A stretch of 56,116 nucleotides of DNA from Fidelibacterota bacterium (GCA_046861645.1 JBHHUM010000005.1:1-56116); one strand, 5' to 3'. Shown: positions 1,280 through 18,673, counted from the stretch's first letter. The notes: generated by a model from the sequence alone, not told the origin. Translations and numbers: made by a program.

Positions 1280-3829
1280 TCAATAATCCATATCCATCAT
1301 GCCTCCACCTTCCCGGTCTCCCTGTTTCCAGCGGCGTTTCTGCTCCATATTGCCAAAGTTGTACGTCAGCACCAGAAATACCGTCCGGCGATCACGTCGG
1401 CGATCAGCGTTCAAATATTGGATGTAGGTTTCATTAGTCACTAAGTCTTCCAACTCTTCCTCTAATTCGATAGAAAAACCAGCATTATCCAATAAATCAC
1501 TTATCTTCAAAGTCAGCGCAAACTTTCGATTGAAAAAGTTCTTCTGTAAAGCAAGATCCAAAAACATAACCGGAGGTATAATACCATTAATTATTTTCAT
1601 TCTACCACGGTATCGACCTGTAAGTTCAAGTCTACCAACTCCCGGCAGGACGGCTGAAGCCAAGCCATATGAGAATAAACCTTTAAAATTTCCGTTTAGA
1701 TCTGACTCTCCAGAACCATAGGTTCGGGAATTCCAAGAAGTGAGTGTCACCATTAGATTAATAAAGGGTATAGGCCTGAAATTCAACATAAGATCTACCC
1801 CATAGGAATTAGAGTAGCCAGCATTATCAGCTGTAGATATCTGGTATTGTAGAGAGTCACCTTGATCCACCACTAATACTAAATCATTGTCCCACCAGCG
1901 AATCATATCGGTTACATGTTTATAATAAAGACCCGTATTGATGGTGAAGCGACGACTGTTATTTGAAAAATTCAGCTCAATAACGTCGCTGTATTCCGGC
2001 TTCAGGAAGGGATTGCCATTACGTATGTGATATTCATCGAATGTATTTCGAGGAAAAGGATTGAGTGAGTGCCGACGTGGACGATTCACGCGTTTTGAAT
2101 AACCCAATTGTAACTGTTTACTCTCAGAAAGGTGATAGAGCCAATAGAAACTGGGATAGATCTGAAAATAGTCGTTTCGGAACGGAGCCCGAGAGATGGC
2201 AGAATCGATAATGGTGGTATAAATATTTGATGTTTCCGCAGCTATTCCCCCTGACTTTACTTCCGCACGTGTAAATACCTGTTCCATCCGAGCACCAGCT
2301 TTGAGACCCATTTTATTAGTAATATTGATCGAAATCGTACCATAAATTGCATGCACATCTTCATTGTAATGGTAATCATACGGTGTGGTCAGATACTCCA
2401 ATTCAGTAATAAACCTCTGAAAGGTACTTTTATATCCAGCTTCAAAAATTGAATTTTTTCCTAATGGCTGGGTATAGTCTGACTTTAAAATCAGGTTCGA
2501 GTTTGTCTCGTCTTCGTGGGTATCATTATCAGAAATTAAATTAGTTTGACCTGGACTTACCCCCAGATTTTCTACAGTATGAGCCTCTTTTTGTTGATCT
2601 TCGGATTTAGAAAGGGATACCTCAAAAATTAGATCCTGTTGTTCATCATCAAAATCTCGATCATAACTGAAATCCAATTGAGTAGTCTGACCAACGTCTG
2701 TCTCTACAGAATGAAGAGTATACTCATAGGGTAGGAAATAATTTAAATAATCGTCAGTCTGGTTGGTATGATTGTTGAAGGAACCACTAATGGAAATGGT
2801 ATTCCTCTTGTTCAGGTAGTAGTCCCCACCGATTTTAAGAGATACCGTCTCTGGAATACGCAAACGTTTTGTAGCCATGCGAGAAGAATCAGTTGATGTG
2901 GGATAAACCCAGATAAATTCTCTACCACCTTTTCCCAATTGATTACCCAATCTATAACTTCCGTTGGTAAATACATTCCATGAATTAACCCTGTAGTTTA
3001 ATGCGCCAGAAAAGTTATACTTTTCGAATTGACCTACCGAAGCCGAAGTCATCCCGTTGAGACCTTCAAATTTTCCCCGCTTCAGAATAATGTTAATGAT
3101 GCCACCCATTCCATCAGGATCGTACTTCGCGGAGGGATTGGTAATGACTTCCACACGATCGATCATAGCCGCAGGAATGTTATCCACTACGGCCCGACGA
3201 TCACCATGAGTTAATCCACTGGGCTTTCCATCCACAAGAACGGTAACATTCTGATCTCCTCGAAGTGAAATGTTGCCATCAATATCTACATCCACAGAAG
3301 GAATCTTCTTGAGAGCATCAGCAGCTGTTCCCCCAGCAACAGTAAGACTTTTATCCACCCGGAATATTTTCTTATCTATGGTTTGAATCAATTGTGGACT
3401 CTCACCTAATACTTCCAGTTCCTCCATCTGCAGTGAAACCGAGACCAACTTAATGATACCTAAATTCTGTTCAACTCCACCTCCCTTCCCTGGAAATAAA
3501 CTGATGCCATGAATAACTGTCTTTTCATAGCCGATAAAGTCTACAATTACGCTATAACGCCCTAACCGGATCTCTTCTATTCGGAAATGTCCCTGATCAT
3601 CGGTAATACCACCCGTTACAACTGTCTGATCCCTAATATCTTCAAGAGATACAGAGGCGTAGGCGATAGGAATGCCTGTAACGGAATCAATAACTGTCCC
3701 AGTAACGACTCCTATTTTAGGTAATTGACCGGGATCAAAGTGCTGAGCTAATCCAGGGGATTTAAACAGTAATAAAAACGACACCAAACCACAGATGAAA
3801 AGTTTAAGACGCATGACTATTGTTTTCAC
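1280..3829 (-). CDS. TonB-dependent receptor (CarboxypepD_reg-like N-domain, plug, beta-barrel)
   Basis: Signal peptide; VTGTVIDSVTGIPIAYASV prealbumin-like domain; plug motifs DALKKIPSV..ISLRG..VLVDGKP and IDRVEVITNPSAKYDPDGMGGIINIILK; GNPFLKPE; C-terminal LTYNFG. Start may be ATG 3814. Confidence 0.93.
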   Translation of the reverse strand: MKTIVMRLKLFICGLVSFLLLFKSPGLAQHFDPGQLPKIGVVTGTVIDSVTGIPIAYASVSLEDIRDQTVVTGGITDDQGHFRIEEIRLGRYSVIVDFIGYEKTVIHGISLFPGKGGGVEQNLGIIKLVSVSLQMEELEVLGESPQLIQTIDKKIFRVDKSLTVAGGTAADALKKIPSVDVDIDGNISLRGDQNVTVLVDGKPSGLTHGDRRAVVDNIPAAMIDRVEVITNPSAKYDPDGMGGIINIILKRGKFEGLNGMTSASVGQFEKYNFSGALNYRVNSWNVFTNGSYRLGNQLGKGGREFIWVYPTSTDSSRMATKRLRIPETVSLKIGGDYYLNKRNTISISGSFNNHTNQTDDYLNYFLPYEYTLHSVETDVGQTTQLDFSYDRDFDDEQQDLIFEVSLSKSEDQQKEAHTVENLGVSPGQTNLISDNDTHEDETNSNLILKSDYTQPLGKNSIFEAGYKSTFQRFITELEYLTTPYDYHYNEDVHAIYGTISINITNKMGLKAGARMEQVFTRAEVKSGGIAAETSNIYTTIIDSAISRAPFRNDYFQIYPSFYWLYHLSESKQLQLGYSKRVNRPRRHSLNPFPRNTFDEYHIRNGNPFLKPEYSDVIELNFSNNSRRFTINTGLYYKHVTDMIRWWDNDLVLVVDQGDSLQYQISTADNAGYSNSYGVDLMLNFRPIPFINLMVTLTSWNSRTYGSGESDLNGNFKGLFSYGLASAVLPGVGRLELTGRYRGRMKIINGIIPPVMFLDLALQKNFFNRKFALTLKISDLLDNAGFSIELEEELEDLVTNETYIQYLNADRRRDRRTVFLVLTYNFGNMEQKRRWKQGDREGGGMMDMDY

Positions 3830-4983: not shown

Positions 4984-7287
4984 TCATTTCATGAGGAGTA
5001 GTTTACGCGTTTGAGAAAAATCTCCAACCTGCAGTTGGTAAAAGTAGACTCCGCTCGGATACTTTGTTGCGTCCCAGGTGACTTCATACTCACCCTGCTT
5101 GCCGACAGGCACAACGCTCTCCAGTTGACCACTTACCAGAGTTTCCACTTCCCGACCGAGAATATCGTAAATGACGAGATTCACATACCCGGCTCCAGGA
5201 GCAACAAAACGAATTGATGTCAGGGGGTTAAACGGGTTGGGATAATTCTGATAGAGTACGAATGATCCAGGAAAAACTTTTATTGAAGGGTTAATACTCA
5301 CTTCCACGACTAAATCATCGTAAAGTTGGGCATAAGGTGCCAACGCCACTTTAGGTTCATCAGTATCTTTTCGAATCAACCCTGAAAAACGCATGAAAGT
5401 GTTCAGAGCACCGCCCCCGCCAACATCCTCATCCTCCTCAGCAGTGAGTGAGAAATAGAAGAACCCGTTGATGCCATTATCTACCGCTGAACTGAGAGCC
5501 TCGGTAATATATTGATCCTGACGATTTTCCGAAAAGTAGATCATATCCTCCGCCAGTGAAAGAGTGTCCGGAGGATCATTAAGTTCAATACCCGGAAAGC
5601 CACTTTCTATGAGCCAGACAGGTTTACCAGCATAACCGAGTCCTGCCAGCGCCCGGCGTACTGCCCACACATACTCTCCCACCGAAAACCCCATATTGGG
5701 CAACGCCCAGGCCTGGTTGGGATAATAGTTGAAACCGATGATATCCAAATCATCCACCCAATCTTCCAGGGCTTCCATAAAACCAAGCATATGCAAATCG
5801 TGGGTAATAAGAGCTGTGGGATCTTCTGTATGTATCGCTTCAACCAGGATATCCATGACCTGGTTGCGGAAATCACGATCGAGCCAAAAGTCACCCTTCC
5901 GCCACCAATCCGGGCTGGCTGCAGCAAACGCCGCCGCATTTAACTCATTCTCCGCCTGCCAGACATCTACGTAGCTAGCATACTTTCGTACAGTAGCATG
6001 GGCATAGATTTTGAGATTGTAGAGATAAGTTTCCGGTGGAACTGCCACATAATTTTCCGGTAGTGACCACTCCGGTGATGCCGGAGCAATTGTTAAACCT
6101 TCCGCTGTCTTAGGAGGTCTATCCTGGTGTCCAACGCCAATGGCCATGAAAGGTGTCAAGCCTCGAGCAACACTCTCATCCAAAATATCAAATATGGCTG
6201 AAAACTCCATATCATTCCAATACACCGGATCAGCCAGAAAATCCTCGATCATTTCCGGTGTTACATCAGCAGGATTAAGATTCTCGCCCATATAAGCCTG
6301 GGTCTGTACTCTACTCCAGAAAGTCTCCATACGAAAACCGTTGATACTGAGCGAATCCATAAGGTTAAAGGCAGCATCAACACGTTGAACTTCATCCCAA
6401 TCCTCATGCCAGTGGAATCCACGTTGCAACTGCCAATAGAGATAGCTGAAGCCGCCTATTTCAAGATGAGAACCAGTAACAGGATCAGGTTCTATACCTA
6501 CAAATGCTTGAGGATCAGCTGTAGTCCCAGTTAAAAAATTGATATCGTAGATGAGCTGGACAACGTCTTGCTCAGGATCATTTTCGGTAACGATAGCTAT
6601 ATCCATAGGAAAGCTCGAAAACGCCTCTGCTAAAAGTTCCTCATCATCAATTCCCAACGAACTGATCAGGTCACCAAATACAAACAGGCTGTCGAAGCCG
6701 ATACTGTCCATGGCAACGGCTATGCTATCCATGAAAGAGTCTAATACCAACTCAATGCCCGCCTGAACGGTTGATTCCATACCACTACACCACAAAGCTC
6801 CGCTACCATTGACCGTCACAGTTGGCTCCAGAGGTGTGGGTTCACCCATGGTAATGTCCAATCCGCTGGAACCAAACTGACTGGAACCACCTATTTGAGC
6901 ACCAATTCCGGATATACCAATATCAAAGATGCAACCTCCACCTTCAGCGACAACCACCCAGTTGTCAAGCGAAAGACCAATAATGAAATCAAATTCACCC
7001 ACTGCATCTTCAAGATAGAAAACGGTGGCATCTTCTGGTTGAGAGAAATCTGTGATTTCAAGACCTGCATCCAGCAGAATACTGTCCATCATGGTGGTCA
7101 GATCGAGACTGTCTTTGAAGGCATCATACCACTCCTGTACTGCCCGATCCAGAAAATCCTCTTCCATGTTGTGCTTGTGTCCATTCATCCGCATGGCAAA
7201 GGTGGACGGGTCGGCTGACAGCTGGCAAACCAATAGAATTAGGAGAACTCCGATGGAAATGAAAGATCTGTTCACGTTGTACTTCAT
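4984..7287 (-). CDS. Secreted clan GH-A glycoside hydrolase-like protein with acidic N-terminal domain and C-terminal T9SS-type A/FlgD-Ig sorting domain
   Basis: GGAGG RBS before ATG 7287; signal peptide; candidate acid/base WQAENELN and nucleophile VWLIESGFP; FNYYP; C-terminal LYQNYPNPFNP...IYDILGREV...SGVYFYQL...RKLLLMK. Confidence 0.8.
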   Translation of the reverse strand: MKYNVNRSFISIGVLLILLVCQLSADPSTFAMRMNGHKHNMEEDFLDRAVQEWYDAFKDSLDLTTMMDSILLDAGLEITDFSQPEDATVFYLEDAVGEFDFIIGLSLDNWVVVAEGGGCIFDIGISGIGAQIGGSSQFGSSGLDITMGEPTPLEPTVTVNGSGALWCSGMESTVQAGIELVLDSFMDSIAVAMDSIGFDSLFVFGDLISSLGIDDEELLAEAFSSFPMDIAIVTENDPEQDVVQLIYDINFLTGTTADPQAFVGIEPDPVTGSHLEIGGFSYLYWQLQRGFHWHEDWDEVQRVDAAFNLMDSLSINGFRMETFWSRVQTQAYMGENLNPADVTPEMIEDFLADPVYWNDMEFSAIFDILDESVARGLTPFMAIGVGHQDRPPKTAEGLTIAPASPEWSLPENYVAVPPETYLYNLKIYAHATVRKYASYVDVWQAENELNAAAFAAASPDWWRKGDFWLDRDFRNQVMDILVEAIHTEDPTALITHDLHMLGFMEALEDWVDDLDIIGFNYYPNQAWALPNMGFSVGEYVWAVRRALAGLGYAGKPVWLIESGFPGIELNDPPDTLSLAEDMIYFSENRQDQYITEALSSAVDNGINGFFYFSLTAEEDEDVGGGGALNTFMRFSGLIRKDTDEPKVALAPYAQLYDDLVVEVSINPSIKVFPGSFVLYQNYPNPFNPLTSIRFVAPGAGYVNLVIYDILGREVETLVSGQLESVVPVGKQGEYEVTWDATKYPSGVYFYQLQVGDFSQTRKLLLMK
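5094..5112. repeat. Degenerate short palindromic element (CCTGCCTGCCGNCAGGCAGG type) inserted in-frame in the sorting domain
   Basis: CCTGCTTG-CCGA-CAGGCAC hairpin; coincides with an apparent ~7-aa insertion (VVPVGKQ) relative to the usual ..xQxxGxYEVxWDA pattern. Confidence 0.45.
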
Positions 7288-7525
7288 GGTACCTCCCCAC
7301 AATTTATAAAGCTATTTCCTATAATTATATTGAAGTGTACTATTAAAAAGGGGTTATTTCAAAGGGAACATTTCACACCCCATATTGTAAAGTAAAAGTA
7401 TGTTCCGTAACTTTCTATCGAAGGATCATTTTCAGGAGGTTGACCGGCATTCTCATGAACAATGACAACATGCAGTTACTGTTCTGTACAATCACATCTT
7501 ACACTCAATCCCGGGAGGTATTACT

Positions 7526-9337
7526 ATGAAGACTATACGACTCCTTATTTTCTCAATGTTCTGTACACAACTGACCTTAGCCTGGTATCCGGATTACACC
7601 GTAATGGCGACTGATTTTGTTCTGCGGTATGATTTTCTTTCACCAGCCAGAATTCCATCCATTTCACTGCAAGGACTCGGGCCGCAATTTCAGAATATCT
7701 ATAGTCACCCTCTAGACAATACCTTCCAGAATCCTGCTTACTTGCACTTCTGGCCGAAGAATTTTCTCTATGCAGACCTGGCCGGAGAGGAATACCAACC
7801 GGATTTCGTTCAACCAATCCCGATTTTCTATTTCGACAACTCCTATTATTGGTCACCGTACCGCTATTCTGAAGAACCTTCCATAGAGGAACCACTTTTG
7901 CGTTTGGTCTATTTCGGGAAGCCGCTGGAAGATAAACTTCCCATGGGGATCGGTGCGGCGTATGAATATTTCTACACTCAGGAGAAGTTCTATAAACCGT
8001 ACTGGTACTGGTGGGGATATGGTATGATGAATGCTTTGGGTGGAGCATATGAACAGTCTGCTGCAGATCCCTACGAAGATTACCGCATTATGGAAGAGGG
8101 CGATAATGTGGAGACTATGACCGGTCACCGCCTCACGACATTTGTCTCATACCCTATTACAGAAAGCTTAGTACTTGGTCTCAGATATGCTTTCCAGATC
8201 GAAGATGCCAACGGTCTGTACCATGACTTGGATTTCAATGATCATAGCAGTTATGCGGATGAATACCTTCGTTTCTACGACACCCGTGAGGAAATGGATC
8301 AGACATATCAGGTCAATGATGGTATGGCGGGACTTATCTTCTCATCCGAAGGTGGAACTCGCCTGGGAATCACTTTCGGGTATGCGGATGGATTTACTGA
8401 GCGAATTCATACAGACAGTGATACCTCCTATTACAAATCAGTCTATCTAAATGAAGATACCACCAAGACAAGCCGTTATAGAAGAATCAACAGCTACCTG
8501 TCGGAGAAACAGTGGAATTATGACGGGACTTCTAACAACGCTGCTATCCACGGCGATCTCCCAGCAGGGAACAACATGCTTGTGCGATTTTCATTTTATG
8601 GAGAAAAAAGGAACGCTAATCTCACTGAGAGTGAAACAATGGATCGTTCTCAATACTACTTCAGTAAATACTGGTACAGTTACTACGATACACTACAACA
8701 GTATCTGTCGGATTCATGGGCGGTTTTAGAGCGTAACGGAAATGGCAATTATGAATTTAAGCGGCGTAGATACTCAGTAGGAGTTGACTGGGAGATTTCT
8801 CAAAAAGTTCGCTTCATTGGAGGAATTGTTCACGATGACCGGGCAGCTGAACGCTCAGCCACAGAACCGTTTGTAGGCACAAAATACTCCCTCATAGAAA
8901 ACGAAGGGTACACCTGGCAAGAATATGATAGTCGCGAGGAGATGCAGGAGAACGACAAGGAATTCAGATGGTGGCGGTCTGAATCTTACACGACTACCTC
9001 CGTGCCTCTGGGAGTAGTCCTCGATCTATTGGATGACTTCGAAATACAGTTTGGACTCACAAAAGTTCTTCAGCACACCGACATTGATGAAGGGTACGAT
9101 TTGGTGGTCTTCAAAGACAAGAATACCGTAACAGAGGACGGAGAGACAACTGTCACTGAGGATTCTATGTATGTGGAGGGACACGACTTCCCCGGCACGC
9201 AGACCTTTATCAATGACCTGCGGTTCAATGCTGGACTCAGTCTGACTGCAAGCGATCATTTCAGGCTGACAGCAGTTGTCACTGAATCAATTCTTGAACC
9301 GAGATCTCTGAGGATAGGTGGGCAGATCGCCTGGTGA
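7526..9337 (+). CDS. Putative outer-membrane beta-barrel protein, function unknown
   Basis: GGGAGG RBS, signal peptide, Tyr/Asp/Glu-rich, alternating amphipathic strands (GIGAAYEY, LVLGLRYAF, RLGITFGY, YSVGVDW), terminal aromatic residue (GGQIAW). Confidence 0.65.
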   Translation: MKTIRLLIFSMFCTQLTLAWYPDYTVMATDFVLRYDFLSPARIPSISLQGLGPQFQNIYSHPLDNTFQNPAYLHFWPKNFLYADLAGEEYQPDFVQPIPIFYFDNSYYWSPYRYSEEPSIEEPLLRLVYFGKPLEDKLPMGIGAAYEYFYTQEKFYKPYWYWWGYGMMNALGGAYEQSAADPYEDYRIMEEGDNVETMTGHRLTTFVSYPITESLVLGLRYAFQIEDANGLYHDLDFNDHSSYADEYLRFYDTREEMDQTYQVNDGMAGLIFSSEGGTRLGITFGYADGFTERIHTDSDTSYYKSVYLNEDTTKTSRYRRINSYLSEKQWNYDGTSNNAAIHGDLPAGNNMLVRFSFYGEKRNANLTESETMDRSQYYFSKYWYSYYDTLQQYLSDSWAVLERNGNGNYEFKRRRYSVGVDWEISQKVRFIGGIVHDDRAAERSATEPFVGTKYSLIENEGYTWQEYDSREEMQENDKEFRWWRSESYTTTSVPLGVVLDLLDDFEIQFGLTKVLQHTDIDEGYDLVVFKDKNTVTEDGETTVTEDSMYVEGHDFPGTQTFINDLRFNAGLSLTASDHFRLTAVVTESILEPRSLRIGGQIAW

Positions 9338-9524: not shown

Positions 9525-11072
9525 TTATAACCTCCAGTTCAATCCAAAGTAAACATAGAATATCGTAAACTCGTCATCTTTCGAATAATCGAGTGACAGC
9601 GATCCCCTGAGCTTCGATGTCATTCTCCAGTTGAGACTGGCCGAGACTGTATGCTGCCGATAATCTATGATACTGGTACCGTAACCGTAGGAAAATAGTT
9701 CATACTGGGCATAAATATCCATCTTCTTATTCACCGGAGCACTATATCCCAATTGCAAACGGCCACCCGATATCAACAGGTTCCTTAGATAACTCCCGCC
9801 TACACTATAAGATTGTCCTTTAGCAAAAGTTTTTGTTTGGTAGTCCATAAAATAGAACTCTGACTTATCTCCGGTTCCCGATTGAGAGCGAAAGTTAATT
9901 CCAATTTTAAGAGAACCAAAATCATCATAAGTAAAGCGAACAGAATTATACCAACCTGATCGCAGGGCATCTTCGAAAAGGGAATCAGGAAATACAACAC
10001 CGGAGACTTGGTAAATCACCTGTCGACGATCGGAATACCTTGAGCGAAAGATAATCCCTGGCCACGGTTTGATACTCGCAGAAATTTGACTGGATGTTGG
10101 CGTTATGTTTTTTCGATCACCAGGAGAATTATCACGATATAAGTCCAAAGTTTCATAGAGGGAAATCGTGACTTTTCGGTCTAAAAAATCTCCAGAGAAG
10201 CGAAAGTAAACAAACTCTCGATCCACATCCTTATTGGTGTACTGACCTACAGCGGAGAGCATTGCATCCATAGAACTTGACGGAGTACTTCTCTTCCATC
10301 TGGTAAACGCTCCCAACTTATTCACATCAGTTTTAAAGCTTAATGATGAAGGATCGGGCTGAAACCCACTTAAGACACCAATTGAGAAGGAAGAAACCAC
10401 CTGTGAAGATATCATAACTCCATCAGTGGCACCTATTCCAGCCAGTTCAGGGGCAAAAATACGGCCAAGTTGCAGAAAATACTTTCCGTTCCGTTTACCC
10501 ATCGTAAAACGAGCCTGATAAATTGTGAAATCCCTTTCTGAAAGATTACCCCTTCCATAGAGCCAGATATCCGAGCGAAAAGGCGCTGTCAGTACCAATC
10601 CATACCGCAGCGATGCAATTCCCCGGCTGGACTGATCGCCGCCGGAAAAACTACTCATGGAATAGCGGGCTGAAGCATTCCCTCGCTGAGAGAGAATTCG
10701 ATCTTGCCGTATTTGAGGTTTTGATGCTTCCACTGGTGTCTCCATTATCTCTTCCACCGGAAGAGGTTCAAAGGCTGCTTTCTTCTCTAACACCACACGA
10801 TCACCTAACTGAAATGTCTCTACCGGAATCAGCGATTGACAGACAGCGGACCTCCTCGCTACATTCGTTATCACAACTGGACCCAACTCTTCGTTCCGTC
10901 GCAAAATGAGCAGAGTATCGCCTACTGATCCCCCCGCTTCAGAACCGATATTCACATAAACCTGGTCAGTAGTGAGATAAGTAATCTTGCCTTCAGCCCT
11001 AACGATATCTTCATTCTGAGCAATAACTGTAGAAAGAATAATTATCAGTAGGCAAAGGAAATATCTAATCAT
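9525..11072 (-). CDS. Putative outer-membrane beta-barrel (porin) of the multiheme cytochrome cluster, with small N-terminal beta domain
   Basis: Start reassigned to ATG 11072 (MIRYFLCLL, GGAAGGAG upstream, overlaps previous stop); signal peptide; many amphipathic strands; C-terminal YVYFGLNWRL beta-signal-like. Confidence 0.8.
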   Translation of the reverse strand: MIRYFLCLLIIILSTVIAQNEDIVRAEGKITYLTTDQVYVNIGSEAGGSVGDTLLILRRNEELGPVVITNVARRSAVCQSLIPVETFQLGDRVVLEKKAAFEPLPVEEIMETPVEASKPQIRQDRILSQRGNASARYSMSSFSGGDQSSRGIASLRYGLVLTAPFRSDIWLYGRGNLSERDFTIYQARFTMGKRNGKYFLQLGRIFAPELAGIGATDGVMISSQVVSSFSIGVLSGFQPDPSSLSFKTDVNKLGAFTRWKRSTPSSSMDAMLSAVGQYTNKDVDREFVYFRFSGDFLDRKVTISLYETLDLYRDNSPGDRKNITPTSSQISASIKPWPGIIFRSRYSDRRQVIYQVSGVVFPDSLFEDALRSGWYNSVRFTYDDFGSLKIGINFRSQSGTGDKSEFYFMDYQTKTFAKGQSYSVGGSYLRNLLISGGRLQLGYSAPVNKKMDIYAQYELFSYGYGTSIIDYRQHTVSASLNWRMTSKLRGSLSLDYSKDDEFTIFYVYFGLNWRL

Positions 11073-11892
11073 CTCCTTCCCCTTTTCCACCTGATGGATG
11101 ACAGTTATAACATGCCCAGCTTTCATAAATATAACCATTTACTTCTCCCCGATGCTCTTTATCCATCTTGCTTTTATTATGTTCATGACATACTCCGTTC
11201 AGCCCACAGGAAAAAACCGAGTAATCTGTTTGATCAATATGACATTCAGCATTACAGGAAGACCATTTCCCCCGGTGCTCCCCAGAGTAAATGGGGAAAA
11301 AGCGGTCATGATGCGCCATTTCCGTGGGAAACCATGCTCTCGTATTATGGCAAATTGAGCATTCAGTAACTTCAGGGTGGTCTGCAGTGTTAACTTCGAT
11401 TGTGTAAACATTCTCATGACAATCCAAGCAATCTGTAGTGAGATGCCCCTTCAACAAAGTCATTTCATTCCCGTGGCAAGCATTACAATCCAAAGTGGTA
11501 TGAGCTCCCACTAAAGGAAATAGCATGGTCTGGTGCTGGTATCGCCAGTTGCTCAAGTCCCAAGAAACAGTCTGGTGGCACATCTCACAATCGTTACCAT
11601 ATTGAGTCAAATGAATATCCATATGACAAAACGAACAATTTGCTTCAGCTCGCTTAAACTGATGAATCTCATGTTGTGTTTCACCCGGATGACACTGGAT
11701 ACAGTCGGCAAAAATATGCCCACCAGTCAGCTGGAAGTGAGTAGCACGGTTATGATCAAAGCTACGCTCGGGAGCCAGGGGATACCAGGCATCAGGTAGA
11801 TGACATTCTTCGCAAGGTCTGTCCGTCAATTGCAAATCCTGAGCTGAAATAAACGTTACCGTAAAGATTAATACTACTATTCTACGATCCAC
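11065..11892 (-). CDS. Exported multiheme cytochrome c (8 CxxCH + CX3CH + CX5CH)
   Basis: Signal peptide; CEECH, CIQCH, CSFCH, CEMCH, CNACH, CLDCH, CSICH, CYNCH plus CNAECH and CGLNGVCH; FDH/FPLxGxH distal-His motifs. Confidence 0.93.
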   Translation of the reverse strand: MDRRIVVLIFTVTFISAQDLQLTDRPCEECHLPDAWYPLAPERSFDHNRATHFQLTGGHIFADCIQCHPGETQHEIHQFKRAEANCSFCHMDIHLTQYGNDCEMCHQTVSWDLSNWRYQHQTMLFPLVGAHTTLDCNACHGNEMTLLKGHLTTDCLDCHENVYTIEVNTADHPEVTECSICHNTRAWFPTEMAHHDRFFPIYSGEHRGKWSSCNAECHIDQTDYSVFSCGLNGVCHEHNKSKMDKEHRGEVNGYIYESWACYNCHPSGGKGEGDD

Positions 11893-14735
11893 GGTATTTG
11901 GGGTTTAAGCTTTTTCCACCGGGGTTGCCATTTATCATCACCATCCCCGTCGCCATCATCATCATCTCCAGTTGGGTGACATTCATAGCAAGCCCAACTT
12001 TCATAAACGTAGTTACTTGTTCCACTATGCTTATCATCCATTTTACTCTGGTCATGTTTGTGGCAAACTCCATTCAAACCACAGGAAAAATCGGAGTAAT
12101 CTTCCGGTACGATGTGGCACTCTGCTGTACAGGTGGACCACTCACCGCTATGCTCCCCAGTATAAATTGGAAACCAATCGTTATCGTGATCAAAGGTCGC
12201 TTCAGACCAGTTAGTAGTGGAGGTATGGCAGACTTCACAAGCAGTGGGATAACCATTGCTTGCATGATTTGTGGAATTATAATCAGTAAGGTGACAATTC
12301 ACACAACCAGAAGTAATGCCCTCATGGACGAAGGTAGCTCCTTCCCAAGTCTCCGTACTGGTGTGACAATTTTCACAGGTCTGACTGAATCCAGTTTCCT
12401 CAGAATGTGGCGGATCAGAAGCATTATTATAATCAGCAAGATGACAATTCACGCAACCAGAAGTAATACCCACATGGCTGAAGTTAGCCCCTTCCCAGGT
12501 CTCCGTACTGGTGTGACAATTTTCGCAGGTCTGACTGAATCCAATTTCCTCAGAATGTGGCGGATCGGTAGCATTATTATAATCATTGAGATGACAATCC
12601 ACACAACCAGAAGTAATACCTTCGTGAGCAAAAGTCGCCCCGACCCACGTATCAGTTGTCGAGTGACAGGTTTCACAAGTAGTGGTGAAGCCATTCTGCT
12701 CAGAGTGTGGTGGATTGGTAGCACTTTCGTAATCCTGCAGATGGCAGGTGGCACACGTTAGAACCAGTCCATGAGTATAGATATGGGGGCTCCAACCATA
12801 TTCATTATGACATTGATCACAATATCCCGAAGGATAACCATAAGTACCATGATCTGGATTGGTAGTGGACTCAAAATCACTCAGGTGACAGCCACTGTTA
12901 GCACAATCCTGTGGAGTTCCGTTGTACATCTGCTCAACGTGACAGTTAATACACGGCACAGGAATATGAAGGCCCACCAGAGAAAAATTGGTCTGCTCGC
13001 TGGAGTGCTCGAAAGGATCAATCACCCAGCTCTCTGTACCATGACATAATTCACAACTGGTACCAATATTACCATTACCGTGCGGAGGATCAGCACTGCT
13101 GGAATGATCACTTAGATGACAATCCACACACCCTGATAAAATACCGGCATGATCAAATGAAGCTCCAGCCCATGTATCCGTGGTGGTATGGCAGAGGTCA
13201 CAGGAGGTAGAGTATCCATTTTCTGCCAAGTGGAGAGGGGTGGAAGCATTCTCGTAGTCTGGCATATGGCAGGTAGCACACGATAGCGTTAGCCCATGGG
13301 TGAAAATATGAGGACTCCAACCAAATGTATTATGGCATTGATCACAGTAGTTCGCAGGGTATCCATAAAGATTATGGTCGGGATTGTTTGTAGCTTCAAA
13401 ATTACTCAAATGACAGCCACTGTTAGCACAATCCTGAGGAGTACCACTGTACATCTGTTCTACGTGACAATCGATACAGGCTGCCGCAGCATGAGCTCCA
13501 ATGAGAGTATATCCAGTCTGTTCTGTAAGATGCTCAAATAGTTCGATACCCCAATTTTCTGTGGTATGGCATAAAGAACAATTGTCACTGATATTTCCAT
13601 TTGAATGAGGAGGATCTTCGGTTTCATCATATTCAAACTGATGACAATCCAGACACAGATTCTCAGTGAAGGCGGAGTGGGTAAACAGGTTGACTTCCCA
13701 ACCAGATGTAGTATGACAGACAATACAATCATCGGCAATACCGTGGTTGGGATGATCGTAAGCAGAACTTCCATAGTTAGTTTCAGAGATTCCTCCAGGA
13801 ATATGACATCCTTCACACTCTAAGGGAAGATCGTAATTCCCCAACCCGTGGCATGAGGCACAGTCAGTATTCTGATGCAACCCGGTTAGGGGAAATTCAG
13901 TAAGATCATGGTTCATTTCAGCTCCTAGCCACGAAGCAGTGGAGTGACAATACTCGCAATTCTGGCTATATGCTTCAGTAGTATGGGATGGGGCATTAGG
14001 GTATGCACCAGAACCGGTTAGAGTATATTCTTCTTCATGACAAGACCAGCAATCTTGAGGTGTACCGGCAAAGATACCTTCGTGACAGTCAGCACATTGC
14101 GTCGTACGGTGAACTCCATCCAGTATAAAAGCCGTCTGAGAATTGTGATCAAAGTCTGATGGAAGCCAACTATTTCGGCGGGGCGAATGACATATTTCAC
14201 AGTCAGTATTCAATTGAGCTAATTTATGAGATGGAAAATCAACAGCGTCATAATCAGAGCGGTGACACTCGTAACAGAATATGGGTGTGGAACTAAAAAC
14301 TGTCATGGGTCGCTCGGTGTGACATAACTGACAGGCAACACTACGATGGGCTCCCAATAGAGAAAACTGGGTCGTCTCGTGGTCAAAAGTAAGGGTGGTC
14401 ACCTGCCACGATTTATCTCCATGGCACTGCTGACAATCACCTCCGAGTGTTGACTGGTGAACGTCAATGTGGCAATCAACGCAAGTAGTGCCCTCTAATT
14501 GAAACTGATGCTTTTCCAACACTGATGTCCCTTCATGACAGACACTACAAGGTTGCATCCGATGCGTACCCCCAAGGGGAAAACTAGTTAGTTGATGACT
14601 GAAACCTGCCAGAGTAAGAACGTCCCACCCCTCAGCTCCATGGCAATCCTGACAATCGTAACCGGGGACAGTCAGCCCTTCATCCTGTATAGCCAGAAGG
14701 GGTACAGCAATTAGCAGGAGAAACCACTGTTTCAT
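11877..14735 (-). CDS. Very large exported multiheme cytochrome c (32 CxxCH + 4 atypical motifs)
   Basis: Signal peptide; hand count of 32 CxxCH plus 2x CANSGCH, CTAECH and CGLNGVCH; internal repeats. Confidence 0.95.
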   Translation of the reverse strand: MKQWFLLLIAVPLLAIQDEGLTVPGYDCQDCHGAEGWDVLTLAGFSHQLTSFPLGGTHRMQPCSVCHEGTSVLEKHQFQLEGTTCVDCHIDVHQSTLGGDCQQCHGDKSWQVTTLTFDHETTQFSLLGAHRSVACQLCHTERPMTVFSSTPIFCYECHRSDYDAVDFPSHKLAQLNTDCEICHSPRRNSWLPSDFDHNSQTAFILDGVHRTTQCADCHEGIFAGTPQDCWSCHEEEYTLTGSGAYPNAPSHTTEAYSQNCEYCHSTASWLGAEMNHDLTEFPLTGLHQNTDCASCHGLGNYDLPLECEGCHIPGGISETNYGSSAYDHPNHGIADDCIVCHTTSGWEVNLFTHSAFTENLCLDCHQFEYDETEDPPHSNGNISDNCSLCHTTENWGIELFEHLTEQTGYTLIGAHAAAACIDCHVEQMYSGTPQDCANSGCHLSNFEATNNPDHNLYGYPANYCDQCHNTFGWSPHIFTHGLTLSCATCHMPDYENASTPLHLAENGYSTSCDLCHTTTDTWAGASFDHAGILSGCVDCHLSDHSSSADPPHGNGNIGTSCELCHGTESWVIDPFEHSSEQTNFSLVGLHIPVPCINCHVEQMYNGTPQDCANSGCHLSDFESTTNPDHGTYGYPSGYCDQCHNEYGWSPHIYTHGLVLTCATCHLQDYESATNPPHSEQNGFTTTCETCHSTTDTWVGATFAHEGITSGCVDCHLNDYNNATDPPHSEEIGFSQTCENCHTSTETWEGANFSHVGITSGCVNCHLADYNNASDPPHSEETGFSQTCENCHTSTETWEGATFVHEGITSGCVNCHLTDYNSTNHASNGYPTACEVCHTSTTNWSEATFDHDNDWFPIYTGEHSGEWSTCTAECHIVPEDYSDFSCGLNGVCHKHDQSKMDDKHSGTSNYVYESWACYECHPTGDDDDGDGDGDDKWQPRWKKLKPQIPWIVE
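12280..12625. repeat. 150-bp (50-codon, two-heme) tandem repeat, ~2.3 copies, inside the large cytochrome gene
   Basis: ACRCAACCAGAAGTAAT recurs at 12301, 12451 and 12601; intervening DNA is near-identical (PPHSEExGFSQTCENCHTSTETWEGAxFxHxGITSGCVNCH). Confidence 0.92.
12591..13655. repeat. 525-bp (175-codon, seven-heme) internal duplication in the large cytochrome gene
   Basis: ATGACAATCCA at 12591, 13116 and 13641; VEQMYxGTPQDCANSGCHLS...CDQCH..GWSPHI.THGL.L.CATCH occurs twice, 175 aa apart. Confidence 0.88.
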
Positions 14736-16144
14736 CGTATTTGGTCAGTCAAAGTATGGCAATCAGAACAGTTATGTGCAAGTGGTGAATAACGGATAAA
14801 AATTCCATCACTATCAGCTTCCTGCTCATGGCATTTACCACAAGCTACACCAATATGTTTTCCATCCAGTGGAAAGGTTGTTTGTTGATGGTCGAAATTT
14901 AGCTCAGTGAAACTCAAAGAATTGTGGCAGAAATCACATCTATTCTGGAAGTTCAATTGGAACTGATTGCGATGATTATCAACATGACAATTTTCACACC
15001 TGTTCTGTTTCCAGGTAAACTGTGTAGTGCTAACTCCCCGTAGAGGTTGATAATCTTTGTGGCAGAAAATGCAAGGCACGGCTAAATGAGCTCCTTCCAG
15101 AATAAAACGGGAAAGTTGGTGTTGTGCTGCGGTAAATGTTGTCGGTTTGAATCCCTTTATCGTGTGACAAGCGGCACAGTCCCCGCCATCTGCCCGACCG
15201 TCAAATTGACCATAATGTTCATCCTGATGGCAACGGAGGCAGGTATCATATTTTGGTAAGCCACCAGCAAGGTCACTTTTGTGACACTTTAAACAGGCTA
15301 TTCCGATATGCTTATCTATCAAAGGATATTTTGTTACTGAGTGATCAAATGGTTTTAAATCTGTTTTCCAATTTGTTATCTGATGACAGGTTTCACATGA
15401 GGCGCCATAGCTGCCCCGGTGGAAGTCTTCATGGCAACGACCACAACGATCAAAAGCGATCCCGGTGAGTTGCCAAACCATGGGAACTCTATTGGTCTGA
15501 ATCCGGTGGCACTTTTCACAATCCACTTTCAGATGTGTTCCTTCAAGGTGGAAACGAGCCCGGTTATGATCGAATACCGAAATAACCAGTTTCCAGTCAG
15601 AGGTATTGTGGCAGGATACACAATCCGAGGAAACTTCTCCCTGGTGTACATCTTGGTGACAACCAAGGCAGTTTTGTTTAAGACCAAGGAAGGTGCGGTC
15701 GAGAACTGGGAATTGTCTGTTCTCCGCTGCCCAGGTAATAATTGACTCCCCATGAATGAAATCACGCTTATGGCATTGGGAGCAGTTCAGGGCAGAGTGT
15801 TTGCCCATCAACGGATAACCAGTAGCCCCATGATCAAACTGGGAAATATCTTTCGGCCAATAGACTAACTCGAAATTCCGTCCGTTATGATCGGAATGGC
15901 AATCCTCGCACGCTTCCCCCTTATCCTTATGATAGCCCCGTCCTGCAGTAATACGCTCCTTTAAAGGGGAATGACACTCAATACAACCATCAGATATCTG
16001 TTTTTTGTTCTGTTCGTGACACTCCAGACAGTGTTTGTTGCCTTCTAAGTGGGCATGGTACTTAGAAAGTTCTCCCGGAGAAAATTGAGCCCCTAACCCC
16101 GAAAAAAGAAAAACAATGAGGAGGCCAGTGCAGAATAATCTCAC
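14732..16144 (-). CDS. Exported 17-heme cytochrome c
   Basis: Signal peptide followed by QFSPGELSKYHAHLEG; 17 CxxCH by hand count in repeating FDH..F/YPLxGxH..CxxCH units; ATGA overlap with next gene. Confidence 0.93.
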   Translation of the reverse strand: MRLFCTGLLIVFLFSGLGAQFSPGELSKYHAHLEGNKHCLECHEQNKKQISDGCIECHSPLKERITAGRGYHKDKGEACEDCHSDHNGRNFELVYWPKDISQFDHGATGYPLMGKHSALNCSQCHKRDFIHGESIITWAAENRQFPVLDRTFLGLKQNCLGCHQDVHQGEVSSDCVSCHNTSDWKLVISVFDHNRARFHLEGTHLKVDCEKCHRIQTNRVPMVWQLTGIAFDRCGRCHEDFHRGSYGASCETCHQITNWKTDLKPFDHSVTKYPLIDKHIGIACLKCHKSDLAGGLPKYDTCLRCHQDEHYGQFDGRADGGDCAACHTIKGFKPTTFTAAQHQLSRFILEGAHLAVPCIFCHKDYQPLRGVSTTQFTWKQNRCENCHVDNHRNQFQLNFQNRCDFCHNSLSFTELNFDHQQTTFPLDGKHIGVACGKCHEQEADSDGIFIRYSPLAHNCSDCHTLTDQIR

Positions 16145-16439
16145 CGGTTTATAATACCTTCAAAATGTGTAACGTGACAGGTGAAAATAGTTTATCCATA
16201 ATATCTCCGCTATAAAATTCCTCCCCCGTTTTTCACCCAGATTATCAATTTATCCACCCCAAACGAAGTTCAAAATCACGATTAATTTCAAATTGTATCA
16301 GAATAATAGGTAAATTTAACAACCAGAACTACTTACCTCATTAATTATAATCTCTAGGCCGAATACTGTAAGAAATAATTCATATGTAGATCCGATTCGC
16401 TTCCTTCCCTCTTAGACAAACCTCCAGTTTAGACTTTCA

Positions 16440-17753
16440 TCAAATTTTCACTTTAACTTTCTTCCCAAATTCAATACCGATAGAATTAAGCAATGGAAAA
16501 GGTAATTCTCCTCCAGCAAAAATGAATACAAAATCGTTTTCCAGCTTGATTTCCTTCTTATCTTCATCCAGCAAAACAGAATCAGTTTCTATTTTCTTCA
16601 GGTTAGAGTTAAATATTACTATGAGTTTCTTCTCCTTGATGGCTTTTTCAACATTCTTCTCATTCCGGGTTTTAAGCCGGAAAAAGTTGGCTTTACGGTA
16701 AGAGAGGGTAACCTGATTATTTTCCTGATTAGCTAATCCAATGGCAGCCTCAATAGCACTATCTCCCCCTCCCACTACCAGGATACGTCTGTTTTTGTAA
16801 GTTTCTGCATCAATTAACTTGTACATTACCTTTCCCATTTCTTCACCGGGTACCCCCAGTTTACGGGGGGACCCACGCCTCCCTAAGGCAAGAATCAATT
16901 TTTTCGTAGAAATATCACCTTTGGAAGTGGTCATGGTAAACAATCCGTTCGATCGCTCAACACCCAACAACTTAAATTTAGTTTTTAAATTTAATTCATT
17001 TACAGCGATCACTGTTTCCCAAATCTCCAGTAACTCTTCCTTGGTGTATTCTCTGTCTTTAAGTTCCTTATAGAGGGGCAGTTTAACCGGTTGAACCAAA
17101 GTAAGCTTCCGCCGTGGATAATGAAGGATTGTACCCCCCGGTACGTCTTGGTCAATTACCACATAATTAAGACCAAGCTCCTTCGCTCGGAGAGCTGCCG
17201 CCAGACCCGCCGGACCGGCTCCTACGATAACAACATCATGTCCATCATGGGACGAGCTGCTAGGGGTATTATTGATATGATCTATGGCTGTAATTCCGTG
17301 GGAAATTGCGTTCCTGATTAAAGCCAATCCACTAAGCTCACCAATGATATAAATACCTGGAACATTGCTTTCAAAATGTTCCGACAGGGCTGGAATATCC
17401 TCACGCTCGCTGATATCTCCCAAACCAACCTTTATTGCCCCCACAGGACAATTCTCAGCACACAAGGCATGTCCTACACAGTGGCTGCCGTGAATGATGG
17501 CAGATTTACCATCAATAATCCCAAGGACGTCTCCCTCAGGGCAGGAAGTGACACAGATTCCACATCCTATACAGACAGAGCGATTGATAATCGGGTGTTG
17601 AAGTAAAGCCTTATCCTGACCTTTCTCCCTTGTCTGTACCAGTCGAGCCCGAGTCCGAGCTTCTTTCCGCTTCATGCCTACAATATATGGAACAAGAAAT
17701 AATAGAATAATAGCAAGTGCCAATCCCCAGGTTAACAGTTGCTCAGAAATCAT
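16440..17753 (-). CDS. Membrane-anchored ferredoxin (2x Fe-S) fused to a thioredoxin-reductase-like FAD/NAD(P)H oxidoreductase
   Basis: Start ATG 17753 (ATGA overlap with upstream stop); N-terminal TM; CIGCGICVTSCP and CVGHALCAENCP; VVIVGAGPAG (FAD); ILVVGGGDSA..LSYRK (NADPH-type); no redox CxxC. Confidence 0.9.
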   Translation of the reverse strand: MISEQLLTWGLALAIILLFLVPYIVGMKRKEARTRARLVQTREKGQDKALLQHPIINRSVCIGCGICVTSCPEGDVLGIIDGKSAIIHGSHCVGHALCAENCPVGAIKVGLGDISEREDIPALSEHFESNVPGIYIIGELSGLALIRNAISHGITAIDHINNTPSSSSHDGHDVVIVGAGPAGLAAALRAKELGLNYVVIDQDVPGGTILHYPRRKLTLVQPVKLPLYKELKDREYTKEELLEIWETVIAVNELNLKTKFKLLGVERSNGLFTMTTSKGDISTKKLILALGRRGSPRKLGVPGEEMGKVMYKLIDAETYKNRRILVVGGGDSAIEAAIGLANQENNQVTLSYRKANFFRLKTRNEKNVEKAIKEKKLIVIFNSNLKKIETDSVLLDEDKKEIKLENDFVFIFAGGELPFPLLNSIGIEFGKKVKVKI

Positions 17754-18673
17754 TGCGCTAACCAGCCTATTTGTAACCACCCTTCCACAACGAACACATG
17801 AATTATCATAATTACGATCATGGTAAAAGCAAATGGCTTATGTATTACATGCCAGTAGTGGAAAAGACGATGAGCTGTATTCCAGAAGGCAATCTGTCGA
17901 GTGACCTTAATCCGCTGTCGTAGAAGGTGTCTGAAACCAGATACTTTATCAGGAGAGATCTCAGCAACTTTTGCTATTCTTGCTACGATCCTGTTTACGG
18001 TAAACCAGTTAAACAGATCCATCGTAAAAAGAGTAAATAAACCCCACATCCCCCGATTTTTTATTTTTTCTGCACCTGCTAAAGAATCAATATGATCCAG
18101 ATTTTCTCGGGTAAGGTTAAATTCCATTTTTAACCTATCCTTAAGTTCATTGAGGGATGTCTCAAATTCCTGTAATGTCAGCTCCTTCCCGTCCACATGA
18201 CGGGGAATCTTTATATAAATGTAGCGACCTATAAAGCCACTCAGCATCACAGCCATCATAGACCAGTACGAGACTGATACGAGTCCACCAAACTTAAAAG
18301 CAGTATGGAAAGTAACCAGTACTGGTCCGGCGATTCCAAGGAAAATATGATAGTTGAGCCAAGACCTGAGCTTTCCCAAGACGCGAAGGCTCTTCAACCG
18401 TTTCCGAGCAGAATAAACGAATAAGATCACCATCATCGCACTACCTATTATCCCTAAACTGTGGCCCATATCCCCACCAGGTTTCCAGATATCGTGAAAC
18501 TTTGCCGGACGCTCAGCTTTGGGAGTCACATAGTAGTCATCTGGGAGGAGATGGTGGGGACGTTCTTCGTTGGGTAAGAGGTAGTAACCTCCAGCTTCTA
18601 CTGAAATCCAGATAGAAGTACCAAACAGTATCAAAAAAAGACTACTCAATACCAGGCGATGAATGATCTGCAT
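17750..18673 (-). CDS. Ferric-reductase-like transmembrane cytochrome b subunit (putative di-heme)
   Basis: ~5 TM helices; two H-x13-H pairs in TM segments (HIFLGIAGPVLVTFH; HKPFAFTMIVIMIIH), as in NOX/FRE-type bis-His heme b proteins. Confidence 0.8.
   Translation of the reverse strand: MQIIHRLVLSSLFLILFGTSIWISVEAGGYYLLPNEERPHHLLPDDYYVTPKAERPAKFHDIWKPGGDMGHSLGIIGSAMMVILFVYSARKRLKSLRVLGKLRSWLNYHIFLGIAGPVLVTFHTAFKFGGLVSVSYWSMMAVMLSGFIGRYIYIKIPRHVDGKELTLQEFETSLNELKDRLKMEFNLTRENLDHIDSLAGAEKIKNRGMWGLFTLFTMDLFNWFTVNRIVARIAKVAEISPDKVSGFRHLLRQRIKVTRQIAFWNTAHRLFHYWHVIHKPFAFTMIVIMIIHVFVVEGWLQIGWLAQ

Follow-up and report, generated by a model that had tools for sequence, protein, structure and literature searches.

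A six-gene cluster of a Fidelibacterota bacterium encoding a putative PCC3-type conduit with a candidate NAD(P)H-linked entry module

By which route do electrons enter a conduit that spans the cell envelope? The entry point sets the energy retained by the cell and the donors it can use, and to our knowledge every well-studied porin-cytochrome conduit enters the envelope via quinol dehydrogenases. Another route is brought into question by six genes at positions 9525–18673 of a 56,116-nt stretch of DNA from a Fidelibacterota bacterium (GCA_046861645.1, JBHHUM010000005.1:1-56116; the whole stretch is referred to as the window, and its numbering is used for all gene coordinates). The cluster encodes an inner-membrane protein (IMP), a membrane-anchored Fe-S flavoprotein (OXR), three multihaem cytochromes c (c17, c32 and c8) and an outer-membrane barrel (Table 1). 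An earlier note had read it as a conduit between cytoplasmic NAD(P)H and the exterior. According to the present analysis, the six genes probably form one envelope-spanning conduit of the PCC3 type with a two-part, NOX-like entry, through which electrons would flow outward and bypass the quinone pool. The idea of the earlier note was strengthened by the conserved unit, natural fusion proteins, cytochrome c maturation genes and the barrel, whereas the NOX-like dehydrogenase type had to be amended, flow in either direction appears doubtful, and the cytochrome part belongs to a cluster type already catalogued from genomes.

IMP is present in 69 of the 301 genomes of the phylum (Marinimicrobia, i.e., Marinisomatota/Fidelibacterota), and the neighbourhoods of 40 of these 69 loci were sampled. 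OXR directly follows IMP in all 40, a c17-like gene is found in 36/36 loci with at least 3 kb of downstream sequence, and the set of OXR, c17, c32 and barrel is complete in each of the 24 well-flanked loci (at least 9 kb downstream and 1.5 kb upstream). Outside the phylum, species-representative genomes gave at least 579 matches, of which the 80 best were examined; by record title, these stem from around twelve groups of phylum level (Calditrichota, KSB1, Zixibacteria, Acidobacteriota, Gemmatimonadota, Ignavibacteria, Krumholzibacteriia, Latescibacterota, Bacteroidetes and others). Of the 61 such loci with 3 kb or more of downstream sequence, 58 carry a c17-like gene, and the 34 well-flanked loci contain OXR in 33 and the barrel in 31 cases. 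The gene order in the 63 outside loci holding OXR is IMP-OXR (27), OXR-IMP (14) or OXR after the barrel (22); conservation despite such rearrangement is a stronger sign of a functional link than conserved order alone. Metagenomic OXR-IMP loci with at least 2 kb of downstream sequence carry a haem-rich frame downstream in 4/4 cases (23–26 haems in L154, L156 and L157, 20 in L196), and in L196 a single open frame of 1360 amino acids (aa) spans OXR, IMP and 20 haems. This synteny of membrane protein, Fe-S flavoprotein, cytochromes and barrel across the phylum and in other phyla bears out the supposed conserved unit, and the possibility raised in the earlier note that the oxidoreductase/cytochrome b pair usually occurs without cytochromes is at odds with the frequency of the c17-like gene.

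Natural fusions tie these proteins together physically. A search for longer homologs of OXR gave 378 proteins, and the best 120 were analysed. In this set, 63 combine OXR with a nearly complete IMP domain (proteins of 782–976 aa, one of 1156 aa) and come from Planctomycetota, 'Deltaproteobacteria' and other groups, one is a triple fusion of OXR, IMP and 20 haems, 38 join OXR to a c17-like cytochrome of 13–37 haems with no IMP domain in between (P0268-P0304 and similar), and 18 carry other additions. In several OXR-cytochrome fusions the c17 alignment begins at c17 residues 3–9, so that the former signal peptide would act as membrane-crossing linker. Moreover, an 805-aa cluster of the ESM Atlas (56 members; Pyr_redox_2/3 and Fer4_10) has a model that overlays IMP over 279 residues (TM 0.77). 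The fusions would put OXR on the cytoplasmic side and in one complex with IMP and the periplasmic cytochrome. They are the main support for the electron-conduit idea and for the wiring of the flavoprotein to membrane protein and periplasmic cytochrome as first proposed. A search with IMP as query gave no relatives of greater length, which is weak evidence; the OXR query did find fusions.

In the OXR-cytochrome fusions, one helix would need to join the cytoplasmic flavoprotein to the periplasmic cytochrome. Apparent IMP-cytochrome fusions of 730–862 aa (L093, L107, L110, L111 and L119) were dismissed as artefacts of open reading frame (ORF) calling, since the cytochrome frame is open upstream in high-GC DNA and differs from that of IMP. 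The long 'IMP' ORFs of L103, L115 and L129 were also rejected as fusions, their N-terminal parts having no Pfam family and an off-frame-looking composition, and P0225, P0242 and P0238 (truncated IMP plus part of a cytochrome or of OXR) are probably frameshifted or mis-called and were left unused.

OXR consists, in this order, of an N-terminal hydrophobic helix, a Lys/Arg run, a two-cluster ferredoxin domain (Fer4_10, residues 63–112) and a two-dinucleotide flavoprotein domain (Pyr_redox_3, 1.1e-45, residues 184–437). Its closest solved relatives are YpdA/Bdr (7a7b, 5.4e-25), followed by ferredoxin-NADP reductases of the thioredoxin reductase (TrxR) type, and the relatives of known structure are NADPH enzymes. 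The score against TIGR04018 (YpdA bacillithiol disulfide reductase) is 170 bits, under the cut-off of 339.9. Judging from these matches, OXR is a TrxR/YpdA-type flavoprotein with a ferredoxin domain of the 2x[4Fe-4S] type. Since all seven Cys lie in the Fe-S domain and the flavin domain is devoid of CxxC, OXR should not be a disulfide reductase. Invariant positions of the OXR alignment (A3) include C70, C76, C80, C101, C107 and C111, GxGxxG and GGGDSA; the glycine motifs of the FAD and NAD(P)H dinucleotide sites are thus invariant, as is the SYRK...R stretch after the second one, which hints at use of NADPH, by analogy with thioredoxin reductase. Of 26 orthologs, 23 have CxxHxxCxxxCP as the second Fe-S motif (residues 101–112), and most OXR-IMP fusions share it, which suggests that the chain has a cluster with a His ligand or with three irons at one end. 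In this motif, His takes the place of the second Cys of ferredoxins.

IMP matched no Pfam or NCBIfam family in scans of the family libraries, and precomputed Pfam assignments for 120 listed homologs name PF01794 on one, PF01292 on one and PF14358 on two. The family is large: a near-length search yielded 542 homologs at 90 % clustering, and a profile search 4234 cluster representatives at E ≤ 0.001 (2571 at ≤ 1e-10 and 803 at ≤ 1e-30). The protein contains no Cys and 15 His. Its AlphaFold2 model (pLDDT 84.7) shows five long membrane helices (residues 3–32, 68–90, 102–124, 131–155 and 241–306), helices 4 and 5 being connected by a helical domain of ~115 residues. In an alignment of 26 homologous sequences (A1), W105, H109, H123, W274, H278 and H292 are invariant in 26/26 and form two Wx3Hx13H motifs on helices 3 and 5; S145, G146 and G149 (SGxxG on helix 4) are also invariant. 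Further invariant His are H71 at the periplasmic start of helix 2, and H272 and H275 on the cytoplasmic side before helix 5. Lys and Arg are enriched in the loops between helices 2 and 3 (7/17 residues) and between helices 4 and 5 (20/123), indicating that both loops are cytoplasmic and that helices 3 and 5 run from cytoplasm to periplasm. In this orientation, the four His of the motifs would form one pair towards the cytoplasm (H109/H278) and one towards the periplasm (H123/H292). As modelled, the geometry of the His pairs is that of a two-haem transmembrane wire, and IMP is predicted to be a two-haem cytochrome b of the type termed IMP in PCC3 and PCC4.

NOX and ferric reductases conduct electrons from NAD(P)H via flavin and two b haems, the latter held on two Hx13H helices, across the membrane. 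NOX has six helices and a fused dehydrogenase domain of the FNR type and reduces O2 or Fe(III) directly. The window proteins resemble these enzymes in the His pairs on IMP helices 3 and 5 and in the proposed logic of NAD(P)H, flavin and two haems, and differ in that OXR is of the Pyr_redox_3/TrxR type, carries a ferredoxin domain and is a separate polypeptide in this genome; PF01794 (Ferric_reduct) gave no match to the window IMP in Pfam. Of the NOX-like module that had been proposed, the split into membrane protein and flavoprotein was retained, whereas the flavoprotein is not of the FNR type found in NOX and ferric reductases.

The three cytochromes contain 17 (c17), 32 (c32) and 8 (c8) CxxCH motifs, compared to means of 0.12–0.41 and a maximum of 3 in 1000 shuffles of each protein. 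Six atypical motifs are CxxxCH at c32 869 and c8 213, CxxxxCH at c32 436 and 611, and one Cx5CH (CGLNGVCH) each in c32 and c8, the latter two found by eye in the translations. The motif count thus reproduces the 57 canonical and 6 atypical motifs counted earlier by hand. Haem density is high (27.6 residues per haem in c17, 29.8 in c32, and about 28–34 for the cytochromes). CcmF- and CcmC-like genes for cytochrome c maturation, the presence of which was in question, are encoded in the genome.

With Pfam, the three proteins match generic c7/c3 models only (c17: Cytochrome_C7, 1.5e-21), apart from MtrC/MtrF domain II/IV in c32 (PF22113; 65.7 bits, cut-off 30). Compared to PDB sequences, c17 has no match at E ≤ 0.01, and the sole match of c32 is MtrC (9eov, 4.5e-4). 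The DmsE/MtrA family TIGR03508 scores 60.3 bits on part of c32 (cut-off 192.2) and gives no score on c17 or c8. The c17 orthologs have 17, 20 or 23 CxxCH (mostly 17 or 20) and adjoin IMP or the IMP-OXR pair directly; c17 is predicted to be a periplasm-spanning wire. For c32, an outer or extracellular wire is predicted. Its orthologs range from 16 to 73 CxxCH, which the tandem repeats within c32 fit (three copies at 82 % matches, 2.3 copies at 90 %; one 150-bp unit corresponds to 50 aa with two haem motifs). A plus-strand ORF opposite these repeats (11898–12761) is probably no gene and was taken as antisense shadow. The C-terminal module of c8 shares 50 % identity with c32 (BLASTP, 3e-36) and the N-terminal module 32 % (1e-30); by this comparison, c8 is a short c32 paralog built from the two end modules of c32.

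The AlphaFold2 model of the barrel (pLDDT 85.0) comprises an N-terminal beta domain (residues 23–98) and 22 strands spanning residues 127–514. Foldseek against the PDB yielded 363 matches at E ≤ 0.001, the 50 listed being outer-membrane barrels throughout, and the best VIA-align matches are 22-strand TonB-dependent transporters (5t3r_D, Z 20.8, root-mean-square deviation (rmsd) 4.3, 362 aligned). The model and these matches confirm the supposed beta-barrel. MtrB is not among the 50 best matches of Foldseek or VIA-align. In MtrCAB with CymA, and in Geobacter Pcc with ImcH/CbcL, electrons enter through quinol dehydrogenases, and the MtrB barrel has 26 strands. The window cluster shares with these systems the combination of a barrel with predicted periplasmic and outer multihaem cytochromes and the MtrC/MtrF domain II/IV in c32; it differs by cytochromes outside the DmsE/MtrA family and by a barrel modelled with 22 strands, fewer than in MtrB.

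As an alternative to an extracellular wire, the cytochromes could stay periplasmic, as electron store or as reductase for a soluble substrate entering via the barrel. This would agree with the likeness of the barrel to 22-strand import barrels and the absence of MtrB from the 50 best matches, and neither a lipoprotein signal nor a type IX sorting domain is visible in the cytochrome translations. However, the haem density of the cytochromes is that which He, Barco, Emerson & Roden (2017) tie to wire-like cytochromes (PMC5566968), c32 has the MtrC/MtrF domain, the barrel gene is always coupled to cytochrome genes, and a repeat-driven variation in length from 16 to 73 haems suits a wire better than an enzyme. 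A purely periplasmic function is therefore regarded as very improbable.

The PCC3 system described in the main text of He et al. for Alpha-, Beta- and Gammaproteobacteria consists of four genes with proposed inward flow (iron oxidation): a barrel, a membrane protein and two cytochromes, a periplasmic one of ~20–21 haems and another whose median is 34; the number of residues per haem is low in the two, and internal repeats occur (PMC5566968). The membrane protein, common to PCC3 and PCC4, measures ~300 aa and has five helices, the fourth of which carries SGxxG and the third and fifth Wx3Hx13H; these authors likened it to the domain of ferric reductases and expected it to bind two b haems (PMC5566968). 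The window cluster shares every architectural feature of PCC3: IMP has 307 aa, five helices and the published motifs invariant in 26/26 sequences, a gene for an outer-membrane barrel is present, c17 and c32 have 17 and 32 haem motifs at 27.6 and 29.8 aa per haem, and c32 contains internal repeats. The likeness refers to architecture. The window cluster differs from PCC3 by the additional membrane-anchored Fe-S flavoprotein and a third, 8-haem cytochrome, by 17 haems in the predicted periplasmic cytochrome, by 22 strands in the barrel versus up to 42 predicted for PCC3, and by its host, a member of the Marinimicrobia with a heterotroph-like genome.

In PCC4, according to the same main text, the cytochromes are three small proteins of the periplasm with 4, 5 and 10 haems, and an extracellular cytochrome is absent; in subgroup II, the gene of the membrane protein is immediately preceded by one for an Fe-S protein (pfam13247), and both were once annotated as a single gene (PMC5566968). 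The motifs of the membrane protein and a neighbouring Fe-S protein gene are thus shared with the window cluster, whereas the haem counts differ (17, 32 and 8 in the window). The words 'FAD' and 'flavo' have 0 occurrences in the main text of He et al. (PMC5566968), and no paper pairing the PCC3/PCC4 membrane protein with an NAD(P)H flavoprotein was found in a search that covered neither subscription journals nor the supplements of He et al. (figures S1–S4, tables S3–S6). The earlier note knew of no characterised system with this architecture but allowed for related clusters in catalogues: cytochromes, barrel and membrane protein are indeed already catalogued as PCC3, although by prediction only, and it is the flavoprotein partner that was not found in the literature searched. 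OXR as constant NAD(P)H-type partner of the conduit seems to be the undescribed part. A functional parallel is MsrQ, a haem protein of the FRD superfamily that, in the accessible text of PMC12525009, takes electrons from a cytosolic NADH oxidoreductase and delivers them to periplasmic MsrP. The parallel lies in a membrane protein with haem b, in MsrQ of the NOX/STEAP superfamily and in IMP by prediction, that links a flavoenzyme using NAD(P)H on the cytosolic side to a partner in the periplasm, with no need of a quinol donor; MsrQ differs in that it has one haem plus FMN and serves a protein-repair molybdoenzyme, compared to two predicted haems, a tethered Fe-S flavoprotein, a 57-haem wire and a barrel in the window. 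In its general form, the conduit idea thus has precedents in PCC3 and MsrQ. A preprint on peat (10.64898/2026.05.27.727921) describes, in the part available, other clusters with 8–13-haem cytochromes.

In the conduit as proposed here, OXR, tethered to the cytoplasmic face by its N-terminal helix, would oxidise NAD(P)H on FAD and pass the electrons to its two Fe-S clusters, the second with the conserved His replacing Cys. Transfer across the inner membrane would proceed via the b haems of IMP, first at H109/H278 on the cytoplasmic and then at H123/H292 on the periplasmic side, and c17 would carry the electrons from IMP across the periplasm into the 22-strand barrel. Beyond the outer membrane, c32 and its short paralog c8, which might be alternative caps with common docking modules, would deliver them to metal oxides, humic matter or partner cells. 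Such a path would bypass the quinone pool, with net flow directed outward. Such flow would export negative charge, leave protons inside and cost membrane potential; because negative charge leaves the cell, the conduit would represent an electron-disposal valve rather than proton-pumping respiration, and its role may be the regeneration of NAD(P)+ under oxygen shortage. Gene content, motifs, folds, neighbourhood and fusions are read directly from the data, while cofactors, donor, direction, acceptor and the locations of the cytochromes are inferred.

Electrons might also flow inward, from Fe(II), reduced minerals, cathode-like surfaces or partner cells, with OXR reducing NAD(P)+. Iron oxidisers are among the carriers of PCC3, and a role of the system as iron oxidase is considered in the accessible text of PMC5566968 and PMC10734462, and haem wires are reversible in principle, as stated for Mto/Mtr in a PCC3 paper. 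However, this would require an uphill transfer from ~0 V to -0.32 V, opposed in addition by a membrane potential that is negative inside, and a coupling site is not apparent. Inward flow is therefore held to be highly doubtful, and outward flow is favoured over the bidirectional operation suggested in the earlier note.

The proposed bypass also has to be weighed against a quinone-coupled PCC3, in which IMP would be a quinol/quinone-reactive cytochrome b and OXR an accessory that keeps the complex reduced or feeds it conditionally. Several points weigh against the NAD(P)H-linked conduit, beginning with the literature. Quinone coupling is the model of He et al. 2017, in whose main text IMP exchanges electrons with quinones (PMC5566968). 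Proteobacterial PCC3 as described there, and as a functionally unverified system of four genes in the accessible text of later papers on Gallionellaceae (PMC10734462) and Sideroxydans, is without OXR, so that IMP may function without it. No experiment on any member of the cluster was found in the literature. As to structure, Foldseek of the IMP model against the PDB gave zero matches at E ≤ 0.001. The top VIA-align match is the quinone-reactive two-haem cytochrome b561 CybB (5oc0_A; Z 7.3, rmsd 3.5, 135 aligned), followed at Z 6.0–6.5 by a designed two-haem bundle, the likewise quinone-reactive FdnI (1kqg_C, Z 6.1), cytochrome b6 and STEAP4 (6hcy_C, Z 6.0). All these scores are within the range common for helical bundles and no more than suggestive.

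Further points concern the genome and the sampled loci. The genome encodes complex I and two haem-copper oxidases, i.e., a normal quinone-linked chain, and the organism has no need of a quinone bypass; these genes and those for cytochrome c maturation indicate that the conduit would add to the normal respiratory chain and not replace it. Three of the 61 loci outside the phylum (L074, L105 and L144) have IMP and OXR and no c17-like gene in the available stretch, and L143 has no OXR in the available stretch. Among the metagenomic loci, L192 has an IMP-OXR pair and no haem-rich frame in the locus, with ~4.4 kb of it downstream of OXR, and L218 has none in 12.7 kb. Moreover, the loci are interrelated, and some belong to both genome sets (L035 and L073, for example, are one contig), so that the counts are not independent events. 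Quinone coupling, however, leaves unexplained both the near-constant presence of OXR and its fusions to IMP (63/120) and to the periplasmic cytochrome (38/120), the matches to CybB and FdnI are within noise, and a quinone site was not identified in IMP. It is accordingly considered unlikely, and the outward, quinone-bypassing conduit is preferred.

Wired straight to NAD(P)H, such a conduit would have a different energy balance, with membrane potential spent and NAD(P)+ regenerated. One may tentatively extend the idea to a widespread NAD(P)H:extracellular-acceptor oxidoreductase, possibly uniting OXR, IMP, periplasmic cytochrome, barrel and outer wire in one quinone-bypassing supercomplex that would range from Marinimicrobia to Acidobacteriota, Zixibacteria and Ignavibacteria, and in the form of fusions to Planctomycetota. 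Should this hold, many uncultured lineages would use extracellular electron transfer not as respiration but as a redox valve that exports charge and serves a fermentative or mixed metabolism, and the quinone-linked model of the PCC3/PCC4 membrane protein would need revisiting. Marinimicrobia of oxygen-poor waters would gain a route to particles, metal oxides or humic matter. The two-protein entry module of IMP and OXR would be a simple one; it could lead to the re-annotation of thousands of 'hypothetical' membrane proteins, given 4234 cluster representatives in the IMP family, and is compact enough for transplant into host strains for bioelectrochemistry.

The junction sequences confirm the layout assumed from the start, i.e., six co-oriented genes with overlaps at four of the five junctions and a single gap of about 295 bp (Table 1). 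ATGA start/stop overlaps occur between IMP and OXR and between c17 and c32, while the overlaps of c32/c8 and c8/barrel amount to 16 and 8 nt, respectively. The overlapping genes are presumably translationally coupled, which was counted in favour of the conduit. The coordinate 17780 of OXR refers to the earliest GTG; the likely start is the alternative ATG at 17753, to which orthologs and the ATGA overlap with the IMP stop codon point. For the barrel, the earliest ATG would give 9525–11138, and the ATG at 11072, used in the earlier note, stands before the signal peptide. A scan for promoter- and terminator-like sites gave 21 and 9 sites versus 21.4 and 6.9 expected from shuffles, which is no enrichment, and promoters of the host group may differ from those scanned for.

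Table 1. Genes and other features of the putative conduit cluster (positions in the 56,116-nt window)
Feature	Position	Strand	Description
IMP	17750-18673	-	307-aa inner-membrane protein, five predicted helices
OXR	16440-17780	-	446 aa; membrane anchor, ferredoxin domain and FAD/NAD(P)H domain
Gap	16145-16439	.	295 bp intergenic, sole non-overlapping junction
c17	14732-16144	-	470-aa cytochrome c, signal peptide, 17 CxxCH
c32	11877-14735	-	952-aa cytochrome c, 32 CxxCH and 4 atypical motifs
Tandem 150-bp repeats within c32	12276-12723	.	
c8	11065-11892	-	275-aa cytochrome c, 8 CxxCH and 2 atypical motifs
Barrel	9525-11072	-	515-aa outer-membrane protein; signal peptide, N-terminal beta domain, 22-strand barrel

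The slot between OXR and c17 is occupied in some Marinimicrobia by a gene for an FNR-type protein (~285 aa; PF00175, NAD_binding_1), e.g., at L035:11789-12646 (minus strand) and likewise in L036, L044, L045 and L046. Altogether, this gene occurs in 6/40 phylum loci and 6/80 loci of species-representative genomes. The genome carrying the window has no homolog by tblastn with the FNR-type protein, which gave no match on the window's contig, the best one (E 2.1) being on another contig. In other lineages, a tetratricopeptide repeat (TPR) protein is encoded at this place, between OXR and the first cytochrome (L060:6163-6864, L061:9918-10604 and L145:12096-12686). These proteins are of a zinc-ribbon one-helix TPR or a plain TPR type with weak likeness to the TPR domain of CcmH/CycH, and may be assembly factors.

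The flanks of the cluster are unrelated to it (Na/Pi symporter, CYTH protein, type-IX-sorted protein and others), and flanking genes vary among related loci. Downstream are encoded a 772-aa protein with a type IX secretion sorting tail (4984–7302) and a TonB-dependent-receptor-like barrel with CarboxypepD_reg (1280–3829), neither of which is conserved beside the cluster in relatives. A 603-aa ORF facing the cluster end (7526–9337, plus strand) has no Pfam or NCBIfam match. Elsewhere in the genome, further multihaem frames are present at C167:49917-51059 (13 CxxCH), C67:14544-17600 (8) and C165:1284-3269 (8), that of C67 being located on the same contig as two COX1-type oxidase genes.

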